Below, piece after piece: positions 1 to 11,476 of a DNA stretch of 31,069 nt. Position 1 is the stretch's first letter. Every line of letters starts with the position of its first letter. Below the pieces are notes generated by a model, which was given only the letters and a program-made list of their open reading frames with translations, was not told the origin of the DNA and made no database searches. The stretch lies in the IMG/VR virus record IMGVR_UViG_3300025108_000233, positions 1 to 31,069 of that record, one strand, 5' to 3'. The stretch is from a virus. Lineage: Duplodnaviria; Caudoviricetes. Made by a program: the position numbers and the translations under genes.

Positions 1-53
1 ATAAATACTTTTGATTACTCTATTTGAGTAATCATGAATATTTATATATTCAA

Positions 54-114
54 TAGGCTAGGGTAGTGCCTAGGTAAAAAGAAGCGAACCTTGTGTTCAA
101 ACCTAAAACTGCCC
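54..114 (+). ncRNA. Structured 5' leader of the first early gene (hairpin/pseudoknot, unknown class)
   Basis: GGGTAGT 61-67 pairs with ACTGCCC 108-114, TAGGT 71-75 with ACCTA 101-105, and GAAC 86-89 with GTTC 95-98. TAGGC 54-58 can alternatively pair with GCCTA 68-72. Confidence 0.4.
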
Positions 115-144
115 AAAAGAATAAACAAACAAAAGGAGCAAAAA

Positions 145-390
145 ATGACTACATTTTATTTAAATACGACTAAAAGCTTAAGAAAAGAGTCCTCATTCGG
201 ATTTAATACTTACTATTCCTATGCAACTCCAGTTGCATTCGAAAGATATGGGAAACTTTTCGTGAGCGAAAACGTTTGGTCCAGAACGACTGGCAAACAC
301 TTAACACAAATTGACGGAGGCGCTAAAAAATCAAGAATTCCTCATGATGAATTTGTTAAAATATACAACGAAGCGAGACAGGTTCTTTAA
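145..390 (+). CDS. Phage early hypothetical protein (81 aa)
   Basis: AAGGAG SD at 133-138 before ATG 145. The YSY.TPVA...WSRTTGKHL pattern is typical of small phage early proteins. The TTG start at 91 is unlikely. Confidence 0.8.
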   Translation: MTTFYLNTTKSLRKESSFGFNTYYSYATPVAFERYGKLFVSENVWSRTTGKHLTQIDGGAKKSRIPHDEFVKIYNEARQVL

Positions 391-494
391 TGTATAGAAA
401 ACCAAAAGCAGAAATTATAGTAGACCGATTTATTATCGGTCTATTTGTTGTAAAAGCAATTTATATTGCTTATTTAATATCAATTGGAGGCTAA
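390..494 (+). CDS. Small hydrophobic peptide (34 aa, MYRKPKAEIIVDRFIIGLFVVKAIYIAYLISIGG)
   Basis: TAATG stop/start overlap with the upstream gene; one predicted TM segment; fills the gap exactly. Confidence 0.55.
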   Translation: MYRKPKAEIIVDRFIIGLFVVKAIYIAYLISIGG

Positions 495-498
495 TAAA

Positions 499-696
499 AT
501 GAGAGTAATATCGAGTAAAAACCCTTTGACTAAGGAAACTTGGGCATTCGTTAAACTATTAAGAGAGGGTCATGATCATGTCAGTAATGGACACGATCAT
601 AAAGTATATCTACAAAAAGACGTTAATGGCGTTGAGCATTTAGTGACTCAAAACAAAGACGGAAAGATCGAGTCAATAGAAAGATTGGAGGACTAA
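499..696 (+). CDS. Hypothetical protein
   Basis: GGAGG 486-490 before ATG 499. Confidence 0.7.
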   Translation: MRVISSKNPLTKETWAFVKLLREGHDHVSNGHDHKVYLQKDVNGVEHLVTQNKDGKIESIERLED

Positions 697-803
697 TGAC
701 AAAAGAACAACAAGAGAAATTTGAGGAAATACAAAATATAATTAATCAACTTGTGTATGACCTTGAAGATTTAAAAAATGATTTAGAAGATAATAAAAAG
801 TAA
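696..803 (+). CDS. Small acidic coiled-coil peptide (35 aa, MTKEQQEKFEEIQ...)
   Basis: GGAGG SD and TAATG overlap; the stop lies immediately before the ribozyme. Confidence 0.65.
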   Translation: MTKEQQEKFEEIQNIINQLVYDLEDLKNDLEDNKK

Positions 804-806
804 TTC

Positions 807-878
807 ACGAAACACGGTCCACGATAAACGGTCCGTGTCTAGGCTCACGAGTTGAAAGAGCCTACTGACGAGTAACTC
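807..878 (+). ncRNA. Hammerhead ribozyme, type II, with pseudoknot
   Basis: GAAA 809-812; stem III ACACGG 812-817/CCGTGT 833-838; cleavage triplet GTC 837-839; stem I TAGGCTC 840-846/GAGCCTA 858-864; CTGACGA 865-871; stem II AC 807-808/GT 872-873; pseudoknot GAGTT 849-853/AACTC 874-878. Confidence 0.93.
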
Positions 879-895
879 AAACAAAGGAGAGCAAA

Positions 896-1102
896 ATGAA
901 TAACAATATATTACAAGTACAAAACAAGGTCGTTTACGGAAATGATCTCGTCTACCCTGTCTGTGACAAAGCAAAAAAGTTCGCTGATCTTTTATGTGTC
1001 AAAACATTTAATGATCATCACATTTGTAAAATCTTAGACTTAGGGTTTAAATTTGAGTTAGTGGTCGACTCAAAATTTCAAAAAATATTAAATAGGGGGT
1101 AA
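896..1102 (+). CDS. Hypothetical protein (paralog of 2824..3012)
   Basis: AAAGGAG SD; YPVC..A..FA.L...T motif shared with 2824..3012. Confidence 0.8.
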   Translation: MNNNILQVQNKVVYGNDLVYPVCDKAKKFADLLCVKTFNDHHICKILDLGFKFELVVDSKFQKILNRG

Positions 1103-1104
1103 CA

Positions 1105-1335
1105 ATGGCAGATCATATAACCAAGCTAACCGACATCTATAATCGTTGGTTAGACCAAGACGAAAATAAAAACGTTGATAAGGGTTCAGCAGACGATGTT
1201 TTATTATTTGATGAGTCCTTGACGACAGACCAAAAAAACTTTTTAGAGCGTTTTTGTGATTTGTGGGAAACTGCACAAGATCATGAATACGAATTAAAAC
1301 TAAACAGAGCATATAAAGAAGAAAGGAGGTTCTAA
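1105..1335 (+). CDS. Hypothetical protein
   Basis: GGGGG SD-like sequence; tight packing with neighbours. Confidence 0.75.
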   Translation: MADHITKLTDIYNRWLDQDENKNVDKGSADDVLLFDESLTTDQKNFLERFCDLWETAQDHEYELKLNRAYKEERRF

Positions 1336-1796
1336 TGGAAATTAGAATTATCGACAAAAATCAAAAGTTGTTACCTAATAAATTGGGTACACATTTTGGA
1401 AGCGTGATTAATTGGTCACGTTCTCGCTCATGGTTTAAGCTTGACGCTTTAACTATTGGTAATGGTGCTACGGTCTATTATTGGTCCGATCGCCATAGTG
1501 GTACGTTAATTGACGTTATCACTAAAAAAAACGGTAGACGCTTTATTGTGGTTCAAATGGACTATGCTAAGCGTACCGATAGTAATGGCTTTTCAGAAAG
1601 CCAGACCTATGAATTTACGCCTAACCCTGAGGGGCGTAAACATTACGCTGAGGTTATCGACATTGAAACCTCAGAAGGTGAAAGAGGGTTTATTCTCGAA
1701 CCTAGAGAATTTAATCCTAAGACGAACCGTTTTTCAAAAGACGGTAATCGTATCACCTTGGGACATCGGTCCGAGTATTGGGACCCTTCGTTCTAA
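1335..1796 (+). CDS. Phage hypothetical protein with C-terminal G.R.EYWDPSF
   Basis: AAAGGAGG SD and TAATG overlap; 153-aa ORF. Confidence 0.85.
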   Translation: MEIRIIDKNQKLLPNKLGTHFGSVINWSRSRSWFKLDALTIGNGATVYYWSDRHSGTLIDVITKKNGRRFIVVQMDYAKRTDSNGFSESQTYEFTPNPEGRKHYAEVIDIETSEGERGFILEPREFNPKTNRFSKDGNRITLGHRSEYWDPSF

Positions 1797-1798
1797 TA

Positions 1799-2105
1799 TA
1801 CATTTTCTAAGACTCCGATTTGGGGTCTTGGACAATGTGTAAATACTAAGCACGATTGAGATTGAATTTGATCCCTCAATCAATAGACGTGTCTATGGTC
1901 CCTTTCATTGTAGTGGATTAGTTTCAGAGGTAGCCTCTAAGTTTTTCATAACCACTTTAAAAAAAACAAACTTAACTAGCAAGGCACGTGGGACTGTCTA
2001 AAGTGAACCAAAAGGATTTCCTAAGTTACAAGGATCATCACCTTGGCTTTCGTTATCAATCTTCACAAGTCCCACTGACCAAAACTTTTTAAAATAGTTG
2101 GTTGA
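1799..2105. ncRNA. Candidate multi-hairpin non-coding RNA (unassigned)
   Basis: No credible ORF. Stems at 1806-1816/1822-1832, 1854-1860/1875-1881, 1883-1888/1891-1896, 1912-1916/1952-1956, 1926-1930/1934-1938, 1988-1995/2068-2075 and 2029-2033/2041-2045. Confidence 0.5.
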
Positions 2106-2154
2106 AAAAAAAATAAAACTAACAATAAAGAGTATAAGAGATTGAAAAAAAAAC

Positions 2155-2184
2155 TTGAATTTTTTTACGATGTCTCGATATAGT
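2155..2184 (+). promoter_or_regulatory. Sigma70-like promoter for the manA-like RNA
   Basis: TTGAAT 2155-2160, 18-nt spacer, TATAGT 2179-2184, with A-tracts upstream. The predicted +1 (~2191) coincides with the first base of the closing stem. Confidence 0.65.
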
Positions 2185-2190
2185 AAGTAA

Positions 2191-2419
2191 GAAATATAGA
2201 AGGACCTGAAACCAAACAAATTGCAATTTGTTTGGAGGCACTCTGACTGAATAACGATTTTAAAACAGAGTCGTAAGGTATAGGGCTCAAGAAGTATGGC
2301 CAAATGGCTGAGGTCTTGAGAAGTAAGTGCGAGTAGAGAGAGATAAACTATCTGTTCCGTCCGAAAGTTGTGGGTAACAGTTCAAACCCCACGAGTACCC
2401 TCAGGTCCTTCTACGTTTC
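2191..2419 (+). ncRNA. Large structured ncRNA, manA-RNA-motif-like
   Basis: Perfect 13-bp closing stem 2197-2209/2401-2413, extendable to 2191/2419. Internal stems 2212-2235, 2241-2245/2266-2270, 2286-2292/2314-2320 and 2370-2374/2388-2392. GACTGAATAA 2245-2254, TAAGG 2274-2278 and TTGTGGGTAA-CAG...CCCAC resemble conserved manA blocks as I recall them. Confidence 0.7.
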
Positions 2420-2436
2420 AAACAAAGGAGGCTATA

Positions 2437-2466
2437 ATGCTGATTATAGTTCTAGACCCATGGTAG
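2437..2466 (+). CDS. Possible 9-aa micro-peptide MLIIVLDPW
   Basis: Strong SD AAAGGAGG 2424-2431 at canonical spacing; the stop lies inside a terminator hairpin. Confidence 0.35.
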   Translation: MLIIVLDPW

Positions 2467-2484
2467 CCCTTAGGGGCTACTTTT
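2463..2484 (+). terminator. Rho-independent terminator
   Basis: GTAGCCC/GGGCTAC stem followed by TTTT. Confidence 0.65.
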
Positions 2485-2493
2485 CATTAAAAT

Positions 2494-2830
2494 AAAAGGA
2501 GAGCAAATGACTAAACAAGACATACATGAACTCGTGTGGAATTATCTTTTTGATAAAGCATACGATGAAGACAAGCTATTTGAAGAGATTGAGTATCTTC
2601 TCAAATCTTTTGATCAATGGTGTGGTTATACTTCTCAAGAAATTTGGGAATATTGGAATGATAATAAAAAAAGATATGAATTCGGAGACGAGTTTATTCC
2701 TTTTTTGATCAATCACATTACGCTTGATAATAAAACTTATGACGTTGACGGTATCAAAATTACACCGACACTCAAAAAACAATTATTTGTTTTTAAAAAT
2801 AAACTAGAAGAAAAGGAGAGCAAATGACTA
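2494..2830 (+). repeat. 20-bp direct repeat AAAAGGAGAGCAAATGACTA (2494-2513, 2811-2830)
   Basis: Two exact copies, each spanning an RBS and start codon, flanking the 2507..2827 gene. Confidence 0.85.
2507..2827 (+). CDS. Hypothetical protein
   Basis: AAGGAG SD; 106 aa. Confidence 0.8.
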   Translation: MTKQDIHELVWNYLFDKAYDEDKLFEEIEYLLKSFDQWCGYTSQEIWEYWNDNKKRYEFGDEFIPFLINHITLDNKTYDVDGIKITPTLKKQLFVFKNKLEEKESK

Positions 2831-3012
2831 GAGAAAAACAAGACCTACTTGTTAAACGCAATTCAGTCGACTCAAAAAGATTTCACCCTTACTGTGCTAG
2901 GGCTGAAACTTTTGCTTTATTAACAAGAAAACTAACCTTAAATGAAGATGAATTAAATTGGATTGGACTTTTAGGTTATAATATTATAATACTAGATAAG
3001 GAGGTAAAATGA
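2824..3012 (+). CDS. Hypothetical protein (paralog of 896..1102)
   Basis: AAGGAG SD; ATGA overlap. Confidence 0.75.
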   Translation: MTREKQDLLVKRNSVDSKRFHPYCARAETFALLTRKLTLNEDELNWIGLLGYNIIILDKEVK

Positions 3013-3155
3013 GTAAACTAAAACTGCTATATAGAAAAGTAATGTTTTTATTTTCTAAACAAGATCTAGACGCAATTTTAAAGTATGACCCTTTAAACAT
3101 ACTTACAGATAAAAAAATTAAAGGTATATGGTTAGAACAGGAGGAACAAGAATGA
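3009..3155 (+). CDS. Hypothetical protein (48 aa, MSKLKLLYRKV...)
   Basis: AAGGAGG SD; ATGA overlaps at both ends. Confidence 0.7.
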   Translation: MSKLKLLYRKVMFLFSKQDLDAILKYDPLNILTDKKIKGIWLEQEEQE

Positions 3156-3391
3156 CATCAGGCGTACAAGAAAAAAGAAGAATGATTGTCGGTCGAAATC
3201 TTAAATACAAGACCAACGATCCACGAGTCACGCTCCAAAGACTACGAGAGCAACAAGGCTATTTACTTTTAGATTTCACTCACTCAAAGTATTTGGGTAA
3301 AGAAACGCTAAGAGTGAAGATAGACGGAATGGATAGACGTTTTTATGAGCGATATCTATCAGAAAGAAAACTTAATCAGAAAGGAGAATAA
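3152..3391 (+). CDS. Hypothetical protein
   Basis: AGGAGG SD supports a start at 3152 rather than 3128. Confidence 0.7.
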   Translation: MTSGVQEKRRMIVGRNLKYKTNDPRVTLQRLREQQGYLLLDFTHSKYLGKETLRVKIDGMDRRFYERYLSERKLNQKGE

Positions 3392-3709
3392 ATGACGTGG
3401 ACTATACATCAAGGTTATTTGGGAGACCCTAAAGGTCTTCCCATAGCTGACACGTTAATCTTTGTAAAGCACAAAGAAAGAAGTTACGAGGCAATCGCTT
3501 TATATAGTGGAGAACATCGTAACGTTTATAAGAAAGATAAGGACAAGCTTTTCGATTATTTATCGAGTCCAAAATCTTTGAGTAAACAACAATTTGAAAA
3601 TTTTCTAAATCCGAACGATAATTTTATGGACAGAATTTTCAATAAAAGCACGAGAACTTTAGAAATCAAAAAGTTTCTGGAGTCACAATTAGAAAAGGAG
3701 AAAGAATGA
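3392..3709 (+). CDS. Hypothetical protein
   Basis: AAGGAG SD; abuts the upstream stop. Confidence 0.8.
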   Translation: MTWTIHQGYLGDPKGLPIADTLIFVKHKERSYEAIALYSGEHRNVYKKDKDKLFDYLSSPKSLSKQQFENFLNPNDNFMDRIFNKSTRTLEIKKFLESQLEKEKE

Positions 3710-3822
3710 AAATAGACGTAAGATCGAAAGATTGTGTTTATATCACAATAAAGGGAGTTGTTTATTATATTGATGACTCAACAGGAGAACAAATAATAGA
3801 TAAATGGAAGGAGACTAAATAA
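3706..3822 (+). CDS. Hypothetical protein (38 aa, MKIDVRSKDCVYITIKG...)
   Basis: SD plus ATGA overlap. Confidence 0.65.
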   Translation: MKIDVRSKDCVYITIKGVVYYIDDSTGEQIIDKWKETK

Positions 3823-3932
3823 TGGCTATTGTATTTGGAGGCGTTCGCTATGACGAAAAATCTACAGGTGTGGCTAGGTTAAAGAGAAAAGCTAAAAAGA
3901 AAAAAAGTAAAAAGAAAGGAAGAAAAAAATGA
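3822..3932 (+). CDS. Lysine-rich basic peptide (36 aa)
   Basis: AAGGAG SD and TAATG overlap; MAIVFGGVRYDEKSTGVARLKRKAKKKKSKKKGRKK. Confidence 0.6.
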   Translation: MAIVFGGVRYDEKSTGVARLKRKAKKKKSKKKGRKK

Positions 3933-4144
3933 ACGATCAATTAAAAACAGTGGGCATGGTATCAGCTATGTTTGGTATTATGTCTGGAGACGACAGAGAA
4001 GGTAAAGTAAAATATCAAAAAAGATTTTTTGAAACAGTCAATGGAATAAGTTTTCCTGACGATTGGGATAGTTTACCTTTAGAAGAAAAAGAACGTAGAT
4101 TAGAAGAAGTGCAAAAGTTAGCGCTAGAAAAGGAGAAAGAATGA
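3929..4144 (+). CDS. Hypothetical protein
   Basis: ATGA overlap; FPDDWDSLPLEEKERRL motif. Confidence 0.75.
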   Translation: MNDQLKTVGMVSAMFGIMSGDDREGKVKYQKRFFETVNGISFPDDWDSLPLEEKERRLEEVQKLALEKEKE

Positions 4145-4317
4145 AATATAAGTTTGATCATATAATCGATATACTTCTTCATAGAGACGGTTGGTTAAGA
4201 GTGCCATGGTGGGTACCACAAGACCAAGAAAGAGAACAAGAAAGGAGCAATAACTATGAAACACGAGCACGCGTTCAACAATACAATCAATCACGGTCAT
4301 ATCGAAGGACCGTTTGA
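4141..4317 (+). CDS. Hypothetical protein (58 aa, MKYKFDHIIDILLHRDGW...)
   Basis: SD plus ATGA overlap; the 3' end overlaps the next gene. Confidence 0.5.
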   Translation: MKYKFDHIIDILLHRDGWLRVPWWVPQDQEREQERSNNYETRARVQQYNQSRSYRRTV

Positions 4318-4504
4318 TTTTCATTTAGTACAAGTAAACAAACAAGAGGTTTACGTTTACGATCACGGAAATTATTTGTTTAAAACAAAAATTCCTCGTG
4401 TTGATCCTAAATATGTCAATGATGTGAAAGAACTCAAAAACGCAAGAATAAAAGAGATCATTCGCATAGCAAAAAACAAAGTTAGCGATGTCTATTTATA
4501 TTAG
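4256..4504 (+). CDS. Hypothetical protein
   Basis: AAGGAG SD. Confidence 0.7.
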   Translation: MKHEHAFNNTINHGHIEGPFDFHLVQVNKQEVYVYDHGNYLFKTKIPRVDPKYVNDVKELKNARIKEIIRIAKNKVSDVYLY

Positions 4505-4688
4505 AGGCTTTGTTGATTATCCGTTGAGCCAATATTCTAATGAAGAGCTATTGGCTCGACTCAATAAAATAAAGAACATTATTAAAAATTCAGCACATTG
4601 TGATTTAGATGTAAAATTAAAATTAATAATGGAACAAGAAATAAAAGAAAGGGAAGTAAATGACTGTAAAAATAATAAATTGGTCTGA
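4488..4688 (+). CDS. Hypothetical protein
   Basis: Overlapping ORF in the same-strand run; weak SD. Confidence 0.55.
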   Translation: MSIYIRGFVDYPLSQYSNEELLARLNKIKNIIKNSAHCDLDVKLKLIMEQEIKEREVNDCKNNKLV

Positions 4689-5190
4689 AGCTAAAAAACA
4701 GAAGCTTACAAGATATTACAATGGAGTACCCTGTAAGTGGGGACATATTGCTCAACGAGCCACGAGCAATCGTCAATGCATTCGGTGTAAACAAGACGCA
4801 GATAGTTTTCGAAAGAAATCAAAAGAATGGAAAGAAACTCTTTGGAACTTATTAGGTATCCGATTAAGAAGTATGAGAAAAAAAGATTTAAAGAAATTTA
4901 AACATAAACTAAAGTTAACAAGAGAGGATTTATTAGAAATCTATAATCGAACATATAACAAAAGAAAAAAACAACACATTTGCGAAGCTATAAAAACAAT
5001 AGCACTTACTACTGTTTCAGGCCCAAATGTAGTTTCTTTTGATCGTATTGATAACACAAAACCACATACAAAAGAAAATTTAAAATGTGTTTGTTGGTCA
5101 GTTAATAAAGCTAGATCCGACAACAATTCTAAATTTCTTTTTAAAGTGGCCAAATATACAAGAAGATTGGAGTTGGAACATGCCTTGTAA
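4660..5190 (+). CDS. Putative HNH/His-Me-finger (homing-type) endonuclease with N-terminal Zn-binding domain
   Basis: N-terminal RYYNG.PCKWGH..QR..SN.QCIRC; C-terminal C...SFDRIDN.K..TKENL..VCWSVNKAR. Confidence 0.7.
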   Translation: MTVKIINWSEAKKQKLTRYYNGVPCKWGHIAQRATSNRQCIRCKQDADSFRKKSKEWKETLWNLLGIRLRSMRKKDLKKFKHKLKLTREDLLEIYNRTYNKRKKQHICEAIKTIALTTVSGPNVVSFDRIDNTKPHTKENLKCVCWSVNKARSDNNSKFLFKVAKYTRRLELEHAL

Positions 5191-5377
5191 GAATACAGAA
5201 AAATCAGCGATAGACCGTCACGCAAAAAGAAAACGTGATATTTTATCACTGTTAGAAAAATATATCAAAGTACGAAATCAATCTAAAGTTGATATAGTAA
5301 ACAAGAAGTTTGAATATGAAATAGAGAAACTTCGAAACGAATTAACTAACATCAATAAGTTACTTGATGTCATCTAA
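5180..5377 (+). CDS. Hypothetical coiled-coil protein
   Basis: ATG 5180 after GGAG; ends before the terminator. Confidence 0.55.
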   Translation: MPCKNTEKSAIDRHAKRKRDILSLLEKYIKVRNQSKVDIVNKKFEYEIEKLRNELTNINKLLDVI

Positions 5378-5381
5378 TTCA

Positions 5382-5408
5382 TAATGAGGGGGAAACACCC
5401 CCTCATTA
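5382..5408. terminator. Terminator-like hairpin ending the early operon
   Basis: TAATGAGGGG...CCCCTCATTA inverted repeat directly after the stop codon. Confidence 0.65.
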
Positions 5409-5473
5409 AATCTATTTTACTATCTGTTTAAATATTATATAAATAAATAATTCATTTTATGAAAGGATGAACA

Positions 5474-5629
5474 ATGTCTAAAAAAGAAGAACAAAAATGG
5501 GTGTCTCAAATAATTTCTAAAGACACACAAAAGTTATTAGAAAGAATTTGTAAAGATACAATGAGAACAAAACCGACTCAATTACATATAATTGTCAAAG
5601 AATATTACGAAAAATTAGAAAAAGTTTAG
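5474..5629 (+). CDS. Small ribbon-helix-helix-like DNA-binding protein (51 aa)
   Basis: AAAGGA SD; KWVSQIISKDTQKLLERICKDTMRTKPTQLHIIVKEY fits a beta-alpha-alpha Arc/CopG pattern. Confidence 0.55.
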   Translation: MSKKEEQKWVSQIISKDTQKLLERICKDTMRTKPTQLHIIVKEYYEKLEKV

Positions 5630-5664
5630 TATAATTTATGGATAAATTATGATATTTTTTAAGA

Positions 5665-5871
5665 ATGTTGGAGATATTAAAAGATAATCCACACTTCTTT
5701 CAGAAGACTGTCTATAAAGTCGAATACGTTGACGTACCTGACGAAGAAGAAAATACTGTTCAAAAGGTATTAGTTGAATTTACAGACGGTTCAGAGAAGC
5801 TTTATGATTTTACTTTTTGGAAAAAAGTAGTTGAAAGAGGAAAAGAAATTTTAGAGAGAAGAAGAACTTAA
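5665..5871 (+). CDS. Hypothetical protein
   Basis: 68-aa ORF. Confidence 0.6.
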   Translation: MLEILKDNPHFFQKTVYKVEYVDVPDEEENTVQKVLVEFTDGSEKLYDFTFWKKVVERGKEILERRRT

Positions 5872-5993
5872 ATAGTTCTTGCTCTCTCTTCTGTTTGACT
5901 GTCTTCTGGTTTATATTCCTTATATGCAGTCATTTGGGCTATTACGTCCTGTAAGTAGGCTATAACTAGCTTGTTTTCTTGTTCTTCGGTCAT
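5868..5993 (-). CDS. Hypothetical protein (41 aa, MTEEQENKLVIAYLQD...)
   Basis: AAGGAG SD on the minus strand at 5999-6004; converges on the 5665..5871 stop. Confidence 0.55.
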   Translation of the reverse strand: MTEEQENKLVIAYLQDVIAQMTAYKEYKPEDSQTEERARTI

Positions 5994-10493: not shown

Positions 10494-11336
10494 ATGACAG
10501 AGACAGTAAAAAAGCAAGTAGCGAAACAAGAAAAGGGAACAGACGTAGCGACACTAAGTGGTCTATTAAAGGCGGGTCCCTCACTCTCAAAGAGAGATGC
10601 TGAAGACTATCAAATTCCTTATTTTAATATTTTAAGTAAGGGTGCTCCTCAGCTAGAAGAAGATGACGGTAAGTATATCGAAGGCGCAAAGTTAGGACAG
10701 ATTTTCAATACTGTTACTAACAGAGTTTATGACTCCATAACCGTTTTACCAGTCTACTATCGCAGAAGATTTGTAGAATGGGCAGAGCGTGGAGAAGGAT
10801 CAGGAGCTCCAGTTAACATATATACTCCAGAGCAATTTCAAAAATTCCAAATGGAAGGTAAAGTTGTTCGAGGTGATGATAACAAAGAACGCTTTGTAGG
10901 AAAATCCGATACCTACATCGAAAATACTGCTGAACATTATGTGATCGTACTTGAAGAAGGTGGTTCTTGGAGTAAAGCGATCATTAAAATGAAATCAACA
11001 CAATTAAAAAAATCAAGGACATGGAATTCATTAATGTCCAATCAGAGACGTGTTGAAGGTGATGAAATTTATCAACCAAAAGACTTTGCTCGTGCATACA
11101 CATTATCCACGGTCAAAGAAAAGAACTCAAAGGGTTCTTGGCATGGTTGGGTCATCATTGAAAATAAATGGATTGATGAATTAGGGCTGAAGAGTGTTCA
11201 GACAATAATTGAAGATGCGACACAATTCGAAAAATCAATTCATAGTGGTGATATTGAAATCACTCCGACACAGGATGATGCTAAAAGTTCCCCTCAAGGG
11301 GATGCCTCACAGAATGGTGACGACATACCGTTCTGA
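10494..11336 (+). CDS. Putative ssDNA-binding/annealing protein
   Basis: Acidic tail ending DDIPF; position immediately before the primase. Confidence 0.65.
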   Translation: MTETVKKQVAKQEKGTDVATLSGLLKAGPSLSKRDAEDYQIPYFNILSKGAPQLEEDDGKYIEGAKLGQIFNTVTNRVYDSITVLPVYYRRRFVEWAERGEGSGAPVNIYTPEQFQKFQMEGKVVRGDDNKERFVGKSDTYIENTAEHYVIVLEEGGSWSKAIIKMKSTQLKKSRTWNSLMSNQRRVEGDEIYQPKDFARAYTLSTVKEKNSKGSWHGWVIIENKWIDELGLKSVQTIIEDATQFEKSIHSGDIEITPTQDDAKSSPQGDASQNGDDIPF

Positions 11337-11463
11337 TTAATAGCCCGCGTAAAATTAAGAGTGGTCTTGTCCTCCTATTCCCACTCTTAATCGGTTGGGG
11401 TGTGGTTTTTTCGAGCCTCCTTTCGGACCATGCCCCAACTTAATTAAGGGAGAGGCTATTAAT
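11336..11463 (+). ncRNA. Three-way-junction RNA with two CCUCCU (anti-SD) loops
   Basis: Closing stem 11336-11345/11454-11463; hairpins 11354-11364/11381-11391 and 11393-11407/11426-11440; CCTCCT at 11371-11376 and 11416-11421. Confidence 0.65.
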
Positions 11464-11476
11464 TTGAGAGGTTAAT

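Follow-up and report, generated by a model that had tools for sequence, protein, structure and literature searches.

Interchangeable structured RNAs and candidate transcript-cutting elements in the early region of an HTVC023P-type marine phage

Introduction

Long intergenic RNA stems of about two turns serve as processing sites for ribonuclease (RNase) III, and the early RNA of phage T7 is reportedly processed in this way, a finding attributed to Dunn and Studier in 1973. Here we describe the early region of a 31,069-nucleotide stretch of DNA (the window; IMG/VR record IMGVR_UViG_3300025108_000233, a 31-kb virus record, 53% complete, of an HTVC023P-type marine phage), in which structured RNAs stand between small early genes. 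Its component parts have precedents in clustered hammerhead ribozymes, PeSL cassettes, the manA RNA and the wcaG-manA-abiF cluster of S-CREM1 (PMC9964418). Hammerheads with a one-pair stem II are active and clusters of them flank prophage genes (Perreault et al. 2011, PMC3088659), and assembly into pentamers or cages has been reported for other manA members.

The original prediction for this region, made from the letters alone, was an array of RNA devices in which a structured 5′ end, an unstructured linker and a strong Shine-Dalgarno sequence (SD) generate and protect separate early mRNAs and, together with a distant anti-SD RNA, possibly make up an early-to-middle control system. By comparing related loci (given L numbers here), we observe slots of defined anatomy, structured RNA modules that are exchanged, chained and nested, and a conserved micro-ORF (open reading frame). 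We consider it rather probable that the early region consists of gene cassettes and RNA cargo slots, in which constant elements cut the transcript and the swappable RNAs are accessory products, not switches.

Results

A repeated gene-boundary hairpin and its substitutes

The slot elements, the manA-like unit and the anti-SD RNA of the window all lie on the + strand. E0 (positions 2 to 52), the head of slot 1, is a gene-boundary hairpin with an 18-pair stem and an alternative short 3′ hairpin; the original prediction had overlooked this repeat, together with the 9-codon ORF at 2437-2466. The 50-nucleotide (nt) repeat is represented by 48 distinct copies, one to nine per locus between early genes (four in L266, a longer contig of the window's phage), and in the inspected loci it begins at the upstream stop codon. 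Across the alignment, 98% of the 323 cells of the stem are paired and 10 of its 18 pairs carry double changes, a result matched in 0 of 500 shuffles. The 3′ arm alternatively pairs with the tail, making at least six pairs in 46 of the 48 copies, and this 3′ hairpin exhibits three-way covariation, since the middle base is C in 13 copies and both of its partners are G in 13 of 13. With its 18 pairs, E0 has the long intergenic stem that characterizes RNase III sites, and so does hairpin a of slot 3 (about 20 pairs). E0 is a candidate site for RNase III-type cutting, after which the product would fold anew as a 5′ hairpin.

Up to nine E0 copies per locus surround shuffled small genes, as PeSLs do (PMC2839356, PMC4122927), and E0 might accordingly be read as a DNA-level element, either an operator palindrome or a PeSL-like promoter/terminator combined with a recombination site, with the modules as shuffling passengers. 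The flanking of shuffled small ORFs is indeed found here, but neither a sigma-70 promoter nor a terminator stem-loop lies within E0. Promoter and terminator scans called none at the gene-boundary copies, which have no sigma-70 match or U tract; the one exception is a palindromic TTGATA/TATCAT match in the first copy, which is a variant. The sense-strand G-U pairs and variable loop lengths argue that E0 acts as RNA; with the three-way covariation and the replacement of E0 by a hammerhead in 5 of 19 loci also standing against it, we regard a DNA-level role as very unlikely.

Slot 1 precedes the gene family of 145-390 and, in the 19 loci compared, contains E0 alone (4), E0 with one to three modules (8), a second type II hammerhead without E0 (5), another module with E1 (1) or no element (1); L283, from an unrelated phage, was excluded from slot counts. 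The ribozyme substitutes for E0 and not for E1, so that the cut-like element is E0, with E1 as its cargo. E1 (54 to 114) is an optional H-type pseudoknot with helices 54-58/68-72 and 61-66/109-114; its two short helices and a UAAAA motif are kept around a variable hairpin insert of 15-75 nt, and E1 occurs in 26 IMG/VR stretches. A descriptor, which itself demands the pairing, gave 57 matches (23 distinct sequences) versus 0, 0 and 0 in three shuffles, and the nested fold has a z-score of only -1.8. The insert of E1 in L461 is module b, otherwise found in slot 3. In one metatranscriptome there are forms lacking E1, with position 45 or 52 joined to 124, like the DNA of L271 and L054. E1 is followed by an A/C-rich leader, predicted to be unpaired, the SD and the start of gene 145-390 (115 to 147).

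Two further observations concern elements of this kind outside the window. In L266, in DNA upstream of the window, the early operon is headed by a folded RNA about 250 nt long (L266:3450-3625), placed directly before the first E0. It has 14 distinct versions and no Rfam family; its 3′ end includes an unpaired, invariant stretch, and double changes affect 13 of 73 consensus pairs. In the unrelated, GC-rich phage of L283 (3390-6360), analogous repeated long hairpins, each with a second short hairpin, precede each early SD.

A type II hammerhead heads slot 2

The head of slot 2 (807 to 878) is a type II hammerhead with a complete core of CUGANGA, GAAA and NUH (GAAA at 809-812, GUC at 837-839, CUGACGA at 865-871). 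In the descriptor scan, its stems III, I and II have five, seven and two pairs; stem II is a short stem of one to two base pairs. At least four pairs between loop I and the 3′ tail (849-853/874-878) form a pseudoknot, GAGUU/AACUC here and GGGU/ACCC in a second variant. There are 14 distinct variants, and a loose pattern scan yielded 120 loci, 4 of which passed the descriptor. Rfam hammerhead models gave no match at E <= 10 in window 1-2600, and one relative reaches 22 bits to RF00008. The ribozyme is predicted to self-cleave after position 839. Slot 2 is empty in the window's phage, in which the leader, SD and start of gene 896-1102 (879 to 898) follow directly. Two of 10 distinct fills are empty, and the other eight hold modules, with 107-253 nt from the hammerhead tail to the start codon.

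Slot 3 holds modules that are lost, reordered and chained

Slot 3 is headed by hairpin a (1797 to 1841), a stem of about 20 pairs right after a stop codon (z -8.3) that heads 27 of 27 distinct fills, as the scan definition requires, and has a compensatory variant in L294 and L318. Behind it lie three optional modules. Module b (1845 to 1900), a mobile, irregular hairpin with invariant bulges and no Rfam family, is 93% paired with 19 double-change cells (0 of 500 shuffles) and occurs in 26 stretches, 17 of them distinct. Module c (1913 to 1980) is predicted to form a pseudoknot or triple-helix-like fold from two GUUU strands and an A-rich tail; it is near-invariant in 10 sequences, its outer helix is 100% paired with one double change, its nested fold is unstable (z +0.5), and the columns of its third helix are invariant and thus uninformative on covariation. 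Module d (1983 to 2080), a multi-stem RNA, is the least well supported, with five aligned sequences and a z-score of -1.0. The original prediction had treated 1799-2105 as a single structured block. That it is structured holds true, as it does for the blocks at 54-114, 807-878 and 2191-2419, but it comprises four sub-elements, the constant hairpin a and modules b, c and d, which are lost or reordered independently among relatives.

The 27 fills contain eight module combinations, and 23 of the fills end at the promoter region of a manA-like RNA without a ribosome site; overall, slots hold zero to four interchangeable folded RNAs. The comparison of related loci that had been proposed as a check therefore bears out the idea that early regions carry interchangeable RNA elements. 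E1, b and manA-like RNAs also recur in other marine phage lineages, in other orders and in chains of 300-900 nt that sit behind promoters or before terminators. In one such lineage (L140, L122, L124, L019 and L063), modules are chained with an AAGUUU spacer, which we take to resemble a single-strand nuclease site; of the manA-like RNAs of that lineage's type, 31 of 36 have the spacer immediately on their 5′ side, as against 0 of 46 of the window's type.

Rfam returned no match for E0, E1, a-d or the modules of other lineages; this blank is weak evidence, because Rfam also missed the hammerhead. Likeness of E1, b or c to pistol, twister-sister, HDV, SAM-II or ENE folds, which the Rfam searches did not show, is not claimed.

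The linker travels with its gene

The similar linkers on which the original prediction was built are present, CAAACAAAAGGAG at 126-138 and the identical 13-mer TCAAACAAAGGAG at 877-889 and 2418-2430. The window has three instances of the pattern CAAACAAA(A)GGAG on its + strand and none on its - strand. Chance does not account for the three linkers, since none of 1500 Markov simulations of 1-4500 reached three copies. As a delimited linker, the 13-mer stands only in part, its first two letters belonging to the upstream folds (the hammerhead pseudoknot and the manA closing stem); the remainder is predicted to be unpaired A/C-rich RNA plus the SD. Its proposed ties to the structures are not supported. 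Of 19 aligned sequences of the manA-like RNA, only 3 have the exact 13-mer behind it, whereas the exact linker is kept with the 145-390 gene family in 16 of 19 loci whatever lies upstream, including three loci with E0 and no module and L280, which has no structure at all. The linker is thus an A/C-rich leader that travels with its gene and not with a module. A wider census found it after 12 of 48 modules, directly behind 2 of 46 E0 copies, after 0 of 5 terminators and before 1 of 94 coupled genes. Its rarity directly behind E0 and before coupled genes implies enrichment after non-coding RNA, but no module-specific device; the 'after module' class contains mis-called starts and coupled genes cannot hold a free linker, so that the 19-locus comparison is the better test.

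In a corrected form of the original model, each module would act in cis, shielding the 5′ end of the gene that follows the linker or aiding its translation. An SD often comes directly after E1 and other modules; b comes first behind a promoter and before an SD in L447 and L451; and the cultured Pelagibacter phage HTVC115P has one module of the shared pool ahead of a similar leader, and another such leader directly behind a promoter-like site. However, where up to four modules are chained, a 5′ end can be shielded by the first one only, the 23 slot-3 fills noted above have no ribosome site behind them to be aided, in 10 of 19 loci no module precedes gene 145-390, and ORF-less segments lie between two sites in a sister clade (see below). 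We therefore consider this model unlikely. The HTVC115P module (L469:2735-2870) is unannotated. As for the predicted separate early mRNAs, processing into units is likely, but the constant, cut-like elements are E0, the hammerhead and hairpin a, and the modules at 54-114 and 1845-2080 are optional passengers.

The manA-like RNA belongs to a separate unit with a micro-ORF

Downstream of slot 3 lies a unit that starts with a sigma-70-like promoter behind A-tracts (2155 to 2184; TTGAAT, 18 nt, TATAGT; 9 of 12). The promoter scan overall is not above chance, yet this site is kept upstream of relatives' manA-like RNAs. A conserved A-tract block (GTTGAAAAAA..., window 2100-2150) stands upstream of the manA promoter in both clades. 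The 229-nt divergent manA-like RNA (2191 to 2419; z -5.4) has an added 17-pair closing stem and, in 19 sequences, double changes in 29 of 62 consensus pairs. It scores 24 bits to Rfam RF01745, below the gathering cut-off of 55.2 (relatives, 19.8-44.7 bits), and retains the manA hallmarks, namely the UGACUGAAUAA...GUAAGGU core, the closing helix and the 3′ GUGGG/CCCAC hairpin. It is not the leader of a sugar, nucleotide or photosynthesis gene; the micro-ORF, other modules or unrelated genes follow. In two of four RNA runs, from two studies, RNA contigs cover 2205-2462 (without a difference) and 2221-2400; such contigs display neither strand nor ends and could derive from DNA. A manA-core pattern search of GTDB genomes gave only three chance matches. 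Elsewhere, L102:1-546 carries a full-score manA between two tRNAs, behind a cyanobacterial-type tmRNA.

The leader and SD (2420 to 2436) are followed by an unannotated, conserved 9-codon micro-ORF, MLIIVLDPW (2437 to 2466), and an intrinsic terminator (2462 to 2485), the 5′ arm of which contains the micro-ORF stop codon, as it does in all units. When loci were collected solely by their manA core, the micro-ORF was present in 41 of 60 distinct units of the window's manA-like subfamily and in 0 of 30 others; these are the unbiased counts, a pattern search that demands hydrophobic codons being biased. The 22 distinct DNA versions keep the frame, and all 106 codons before the first acidic residue encode I, V, L or F (102 of them I, V or L). 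Codons 3-6 form a weak but conserved hairpin with the SD and AUG; it has compensatory pairs among 30 distinct units, and for 13 of the 30 the fold falls within the bottom 5% of synonymous shuffles. This covarying hairpin explains part of the U bias of the micro-ORF and counts against a pure peptide reading. L271 is without the manA unit, and L294 has a different manA variant lacking the ORF. Members of the window's manA-like subfamily without the micro-ORF are found in L345, L352, L354, L368, L379 and L385, where a repeated GGGCCCACCCACCC motif often follows. From this arrangement, the manA-like RNA appears to be a separate promoter-to-terminator unit whose SD drives MLIIVLDPW, and not the head of an early protein gene.

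The distal anti-SD RNA has no supported link to the early slots

The RNA invoked as a partner in the original prediction (11337 to 11466; z -4.1) folds into a three-way structure whose loops carry CCUCC, and lies after gene 10494-11336 and before the primase gene. It is present in 15 of 21 loci, the six most distant having a plain hairpin instead, several of which retain manA and the micro-ORF. Among 175 GGAG sites, the SD of gene 1335-1796 is the top-ranked partner of loop 2, ahead of a non-SD site and the micro-ORF SD, while the linker sites at 134 and 885 fall outside the best nine. The anti-SD RNA is real; its link to the early slots is unproven and not supported.

These elements could nonetheless form an early-to-middle control circuit, with the micro-ORF as an MsrDL-like attenuator (precedent, bioRxiv 10.1101/2021.11.29.470318) and the anti-SD RNA silencing early ribosome sites in trans. 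The position of the stop codon in the terminator arm, the I, V or L codons and the first and third ranks of loop 2 pairing fit this proposal. So does the tail of the unit: in 26 of 50 distinct tails a gene lies 23-32 nt downstream behind only 4-5 U, and 12 have a candidate cut site there, which implies read-through. However, while 45 of the 50 tails have a gene within 75 nt, the other 5 lack any start of a gene on the same strand over 260 nt, and the anti-SD RNA is missing from relatives that retain the micro-ORF and unchanged in L303, which has lost the manA unit and the best sites. Loop 1 changes jointly with the RNA's own 3′ strand (one event), which points to pairing in cis. We thus find such a circuit quite unlikely.

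A sister clade with many candidate sites for one hammerhead

Relatives that are 63-66% identical in gene 10494-11336 form a sister clade without E0, in which gene boundaries consist of a stop codon, a GC hairpin, GUGUH, six bases and the SD (e.g., L298:250-4100). Anchored on the 3′ half only, 87 of 91 distinct cassettes have GUGU followed by C (82), U (3) or A (2), never G, and the six bases after GUGUH covary with the post-SD sequence, forming a 5′ hairpin. A single type I hammerhead, located where the operon begins, fits the GUGUH sites with both of its arms. Matching sites number 115 sense-downstream in 62,001 nt (17 loci), 101 of them before an SD, with 0 antisense and 0 in 77,002 nt upstream; hammerheads with other arms have 0-2 own sites each in the same scan. 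The nine longest loci (L477, L495, L506, L507, L475, L481, L485, L496 and L514) each have 7-12 such GUH sites ahead of early genes. This match makes the hammerhead a candidate natural multi-site or trans-acting ribozyme; the GUGUH repeats could also descend from the first cis site and remain uncut. In three loci, ORF-less module segments (127, 242 and 287 nt) lie between two sites, and one of these modules is shared with L145. E0 is followed by the sister clade's 3′ cassette half in L270:3920-3965 and L275:3150-3190, which suggests that cassettes move between the two clades. Promoter calls behind the manA terminator (GTGTCT/16/TATAAT) are doubtful and overlap the candidate cut site of this clade.

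Genomic setting

The window DNA polymerase is 47-51% identical to those of 023Pt_psg01, DSL-LC04, HTVC023P and HTVC027P, and the helicase, primase and virion genes are consistent with the HTVC023P-type group. L027 and L266 represent the same phage as the window and extend further upstream. Small genes of no assigned function occupy 1-5900; Pfam, PHROGs and PADLOC named none of the early proteins. Within the 34-codon gene 390-494, a 9-pair hairpin (421-443) has compensatory changes in relatives and is terminator-like on the - strand. Among cultured phages, blastn of window 1-3000 or of the manA-like RNA gave no useful match, and manA and module b were not found in HTVC023P, HTVC027P or DSL-LC04, in a search whose control also gave no match. 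A survey of 80 HTVC023P-type genomes (PMC9599517) mentions neither ribozymes nor non-coding RNA nor RNase III, and a literature search with coverage of few subscription journals found no publication that describes slots for swappable RNA cargo, the micro-ORF or a phage hammerhead with multiple sites.

Discussion

As a plausible mechanism, E0, the hammerhead and hairpin a would cut one long early transcript into units, with a double-strand nuclease such as host RNase III acting on E0 and hairpin a. After cutting, the 3′ arm of E0 would refold into a 5′ hairpin, and the A/C-rich linker would provide an unpaired ribosome landing pad behind a fold. The E0 repeats may additionally serve as crossover points for shuffling, and the manA-like RNA would form a separate transcript carrying a 9-residue peptide gene. 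The released modules might act on host factors as decoys or antagonists, like the adjacent small accessory proteins, which is speculative and the least certain step. Cutting, protection and release of modules are thus what we infer from sequence comparison. The slot swaps, the substitution of a ribozyme for E0 and the covariation of E0 in both of its folds support this reading, as do the recurrence of modules in other lineages, the ORF-less segments of the sister clade and the full-score manA flanked by tRNAs in L102; hammerheads that flank phage genes (PMC3088659) are a precedent.

Several points weigh against it. The RNA contigs reveal no cleavage, ends or strand; many modules lie in 5′ leaders and could merely stabilise the message; and modules c and d exhibit little covariation. 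The loci are related by descent and DNA exchange, so that the counts are not independent events, and the sister clade bears on the window by analogy. RNase III sites have no reliable consensus (PMC5371410), and E0 could bind another protein. No early protein matched a defence-system library.

A bolder version, which we put forward only tentatively and hold to be doubtful, is that marine phages carry, as accessory genes in slots behind processing sites, a shared, recombining pool of small folded RNAs that are freed to disarm host factors, that the sister hammerhead cuts its own message at up to a dozen sites in trans, and that the manA-like transcript doubles as a peptide gene. If true, the pool would be an RNA counterpart of the early anti-defence protein arsenal. 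The region casts manA as a product in place of a candidate riboswitch. It also contributes a conserved 9-residue peptide gene and, in the window, at least four RNA folds not yet catalogued, and its natural swap experiments tell which elements are equivalent.

In T7 early RNA, long intergenic stems likewise stand between early genes of a podovirus; unlike these, E0 is a near-identical repeat at each cassette with a covarying second 3′ hairpin, and its cutting is a candidate property only. With the PeSL cassettes of T4-type phages (PMC2839356, PMC4122927), the region shares short repeats between shuffled early ORFs and possible crossover points, but a PeSL combines a promoter and a terminator, E0 is neither, and the cargo here includes non-coding RNAs. 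Pseudo-ToxI of phage PhiTE (PMC3475682) is a functional analogy only, as a small phage non-coding RNA and accessory counter-defence product; in contrast to repeats of one antitoxin mimic, there are many different modules here, single and mutually unlike, with no type III antitoxin-like tandem repeats and no Rfam antitoxin match among them. Like MsrDL (bioRxiv 10.1101/2021.11.29.470318), the micro-ORF is a very short hydrophobic ORF on which the ribosome would cover the first half of the terminator, but it has no known ligand or resistance gene and is kept where no gene follows. The manA-like RNA shares with manA RF01745 (PMC2864571; 10.64898/2026.07.01.735769) the conserved core, closing helix, 3′ hairpin and occurrence in marine phage; it differs in its score below the cut-off, its added closing stem, its own promoter-like site and terminator, and the 9-codon ORF that comes next in place of a metabolic gene. 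The hammerhead resembles the type II hammerheads of Perreault et al. (PMC3088659) in its core, its stem II of one to two base pairs, its loop I/3′ tail pseudoknot and its location between small early genes, for which cutting of long transcripts into gene units was proposed. Unlike those hammerheads, it shares the role of slot head with several other elements that can replace one another, and unnamed RNA cargo comes after it; the sister clade has many sites for one hammerhead.

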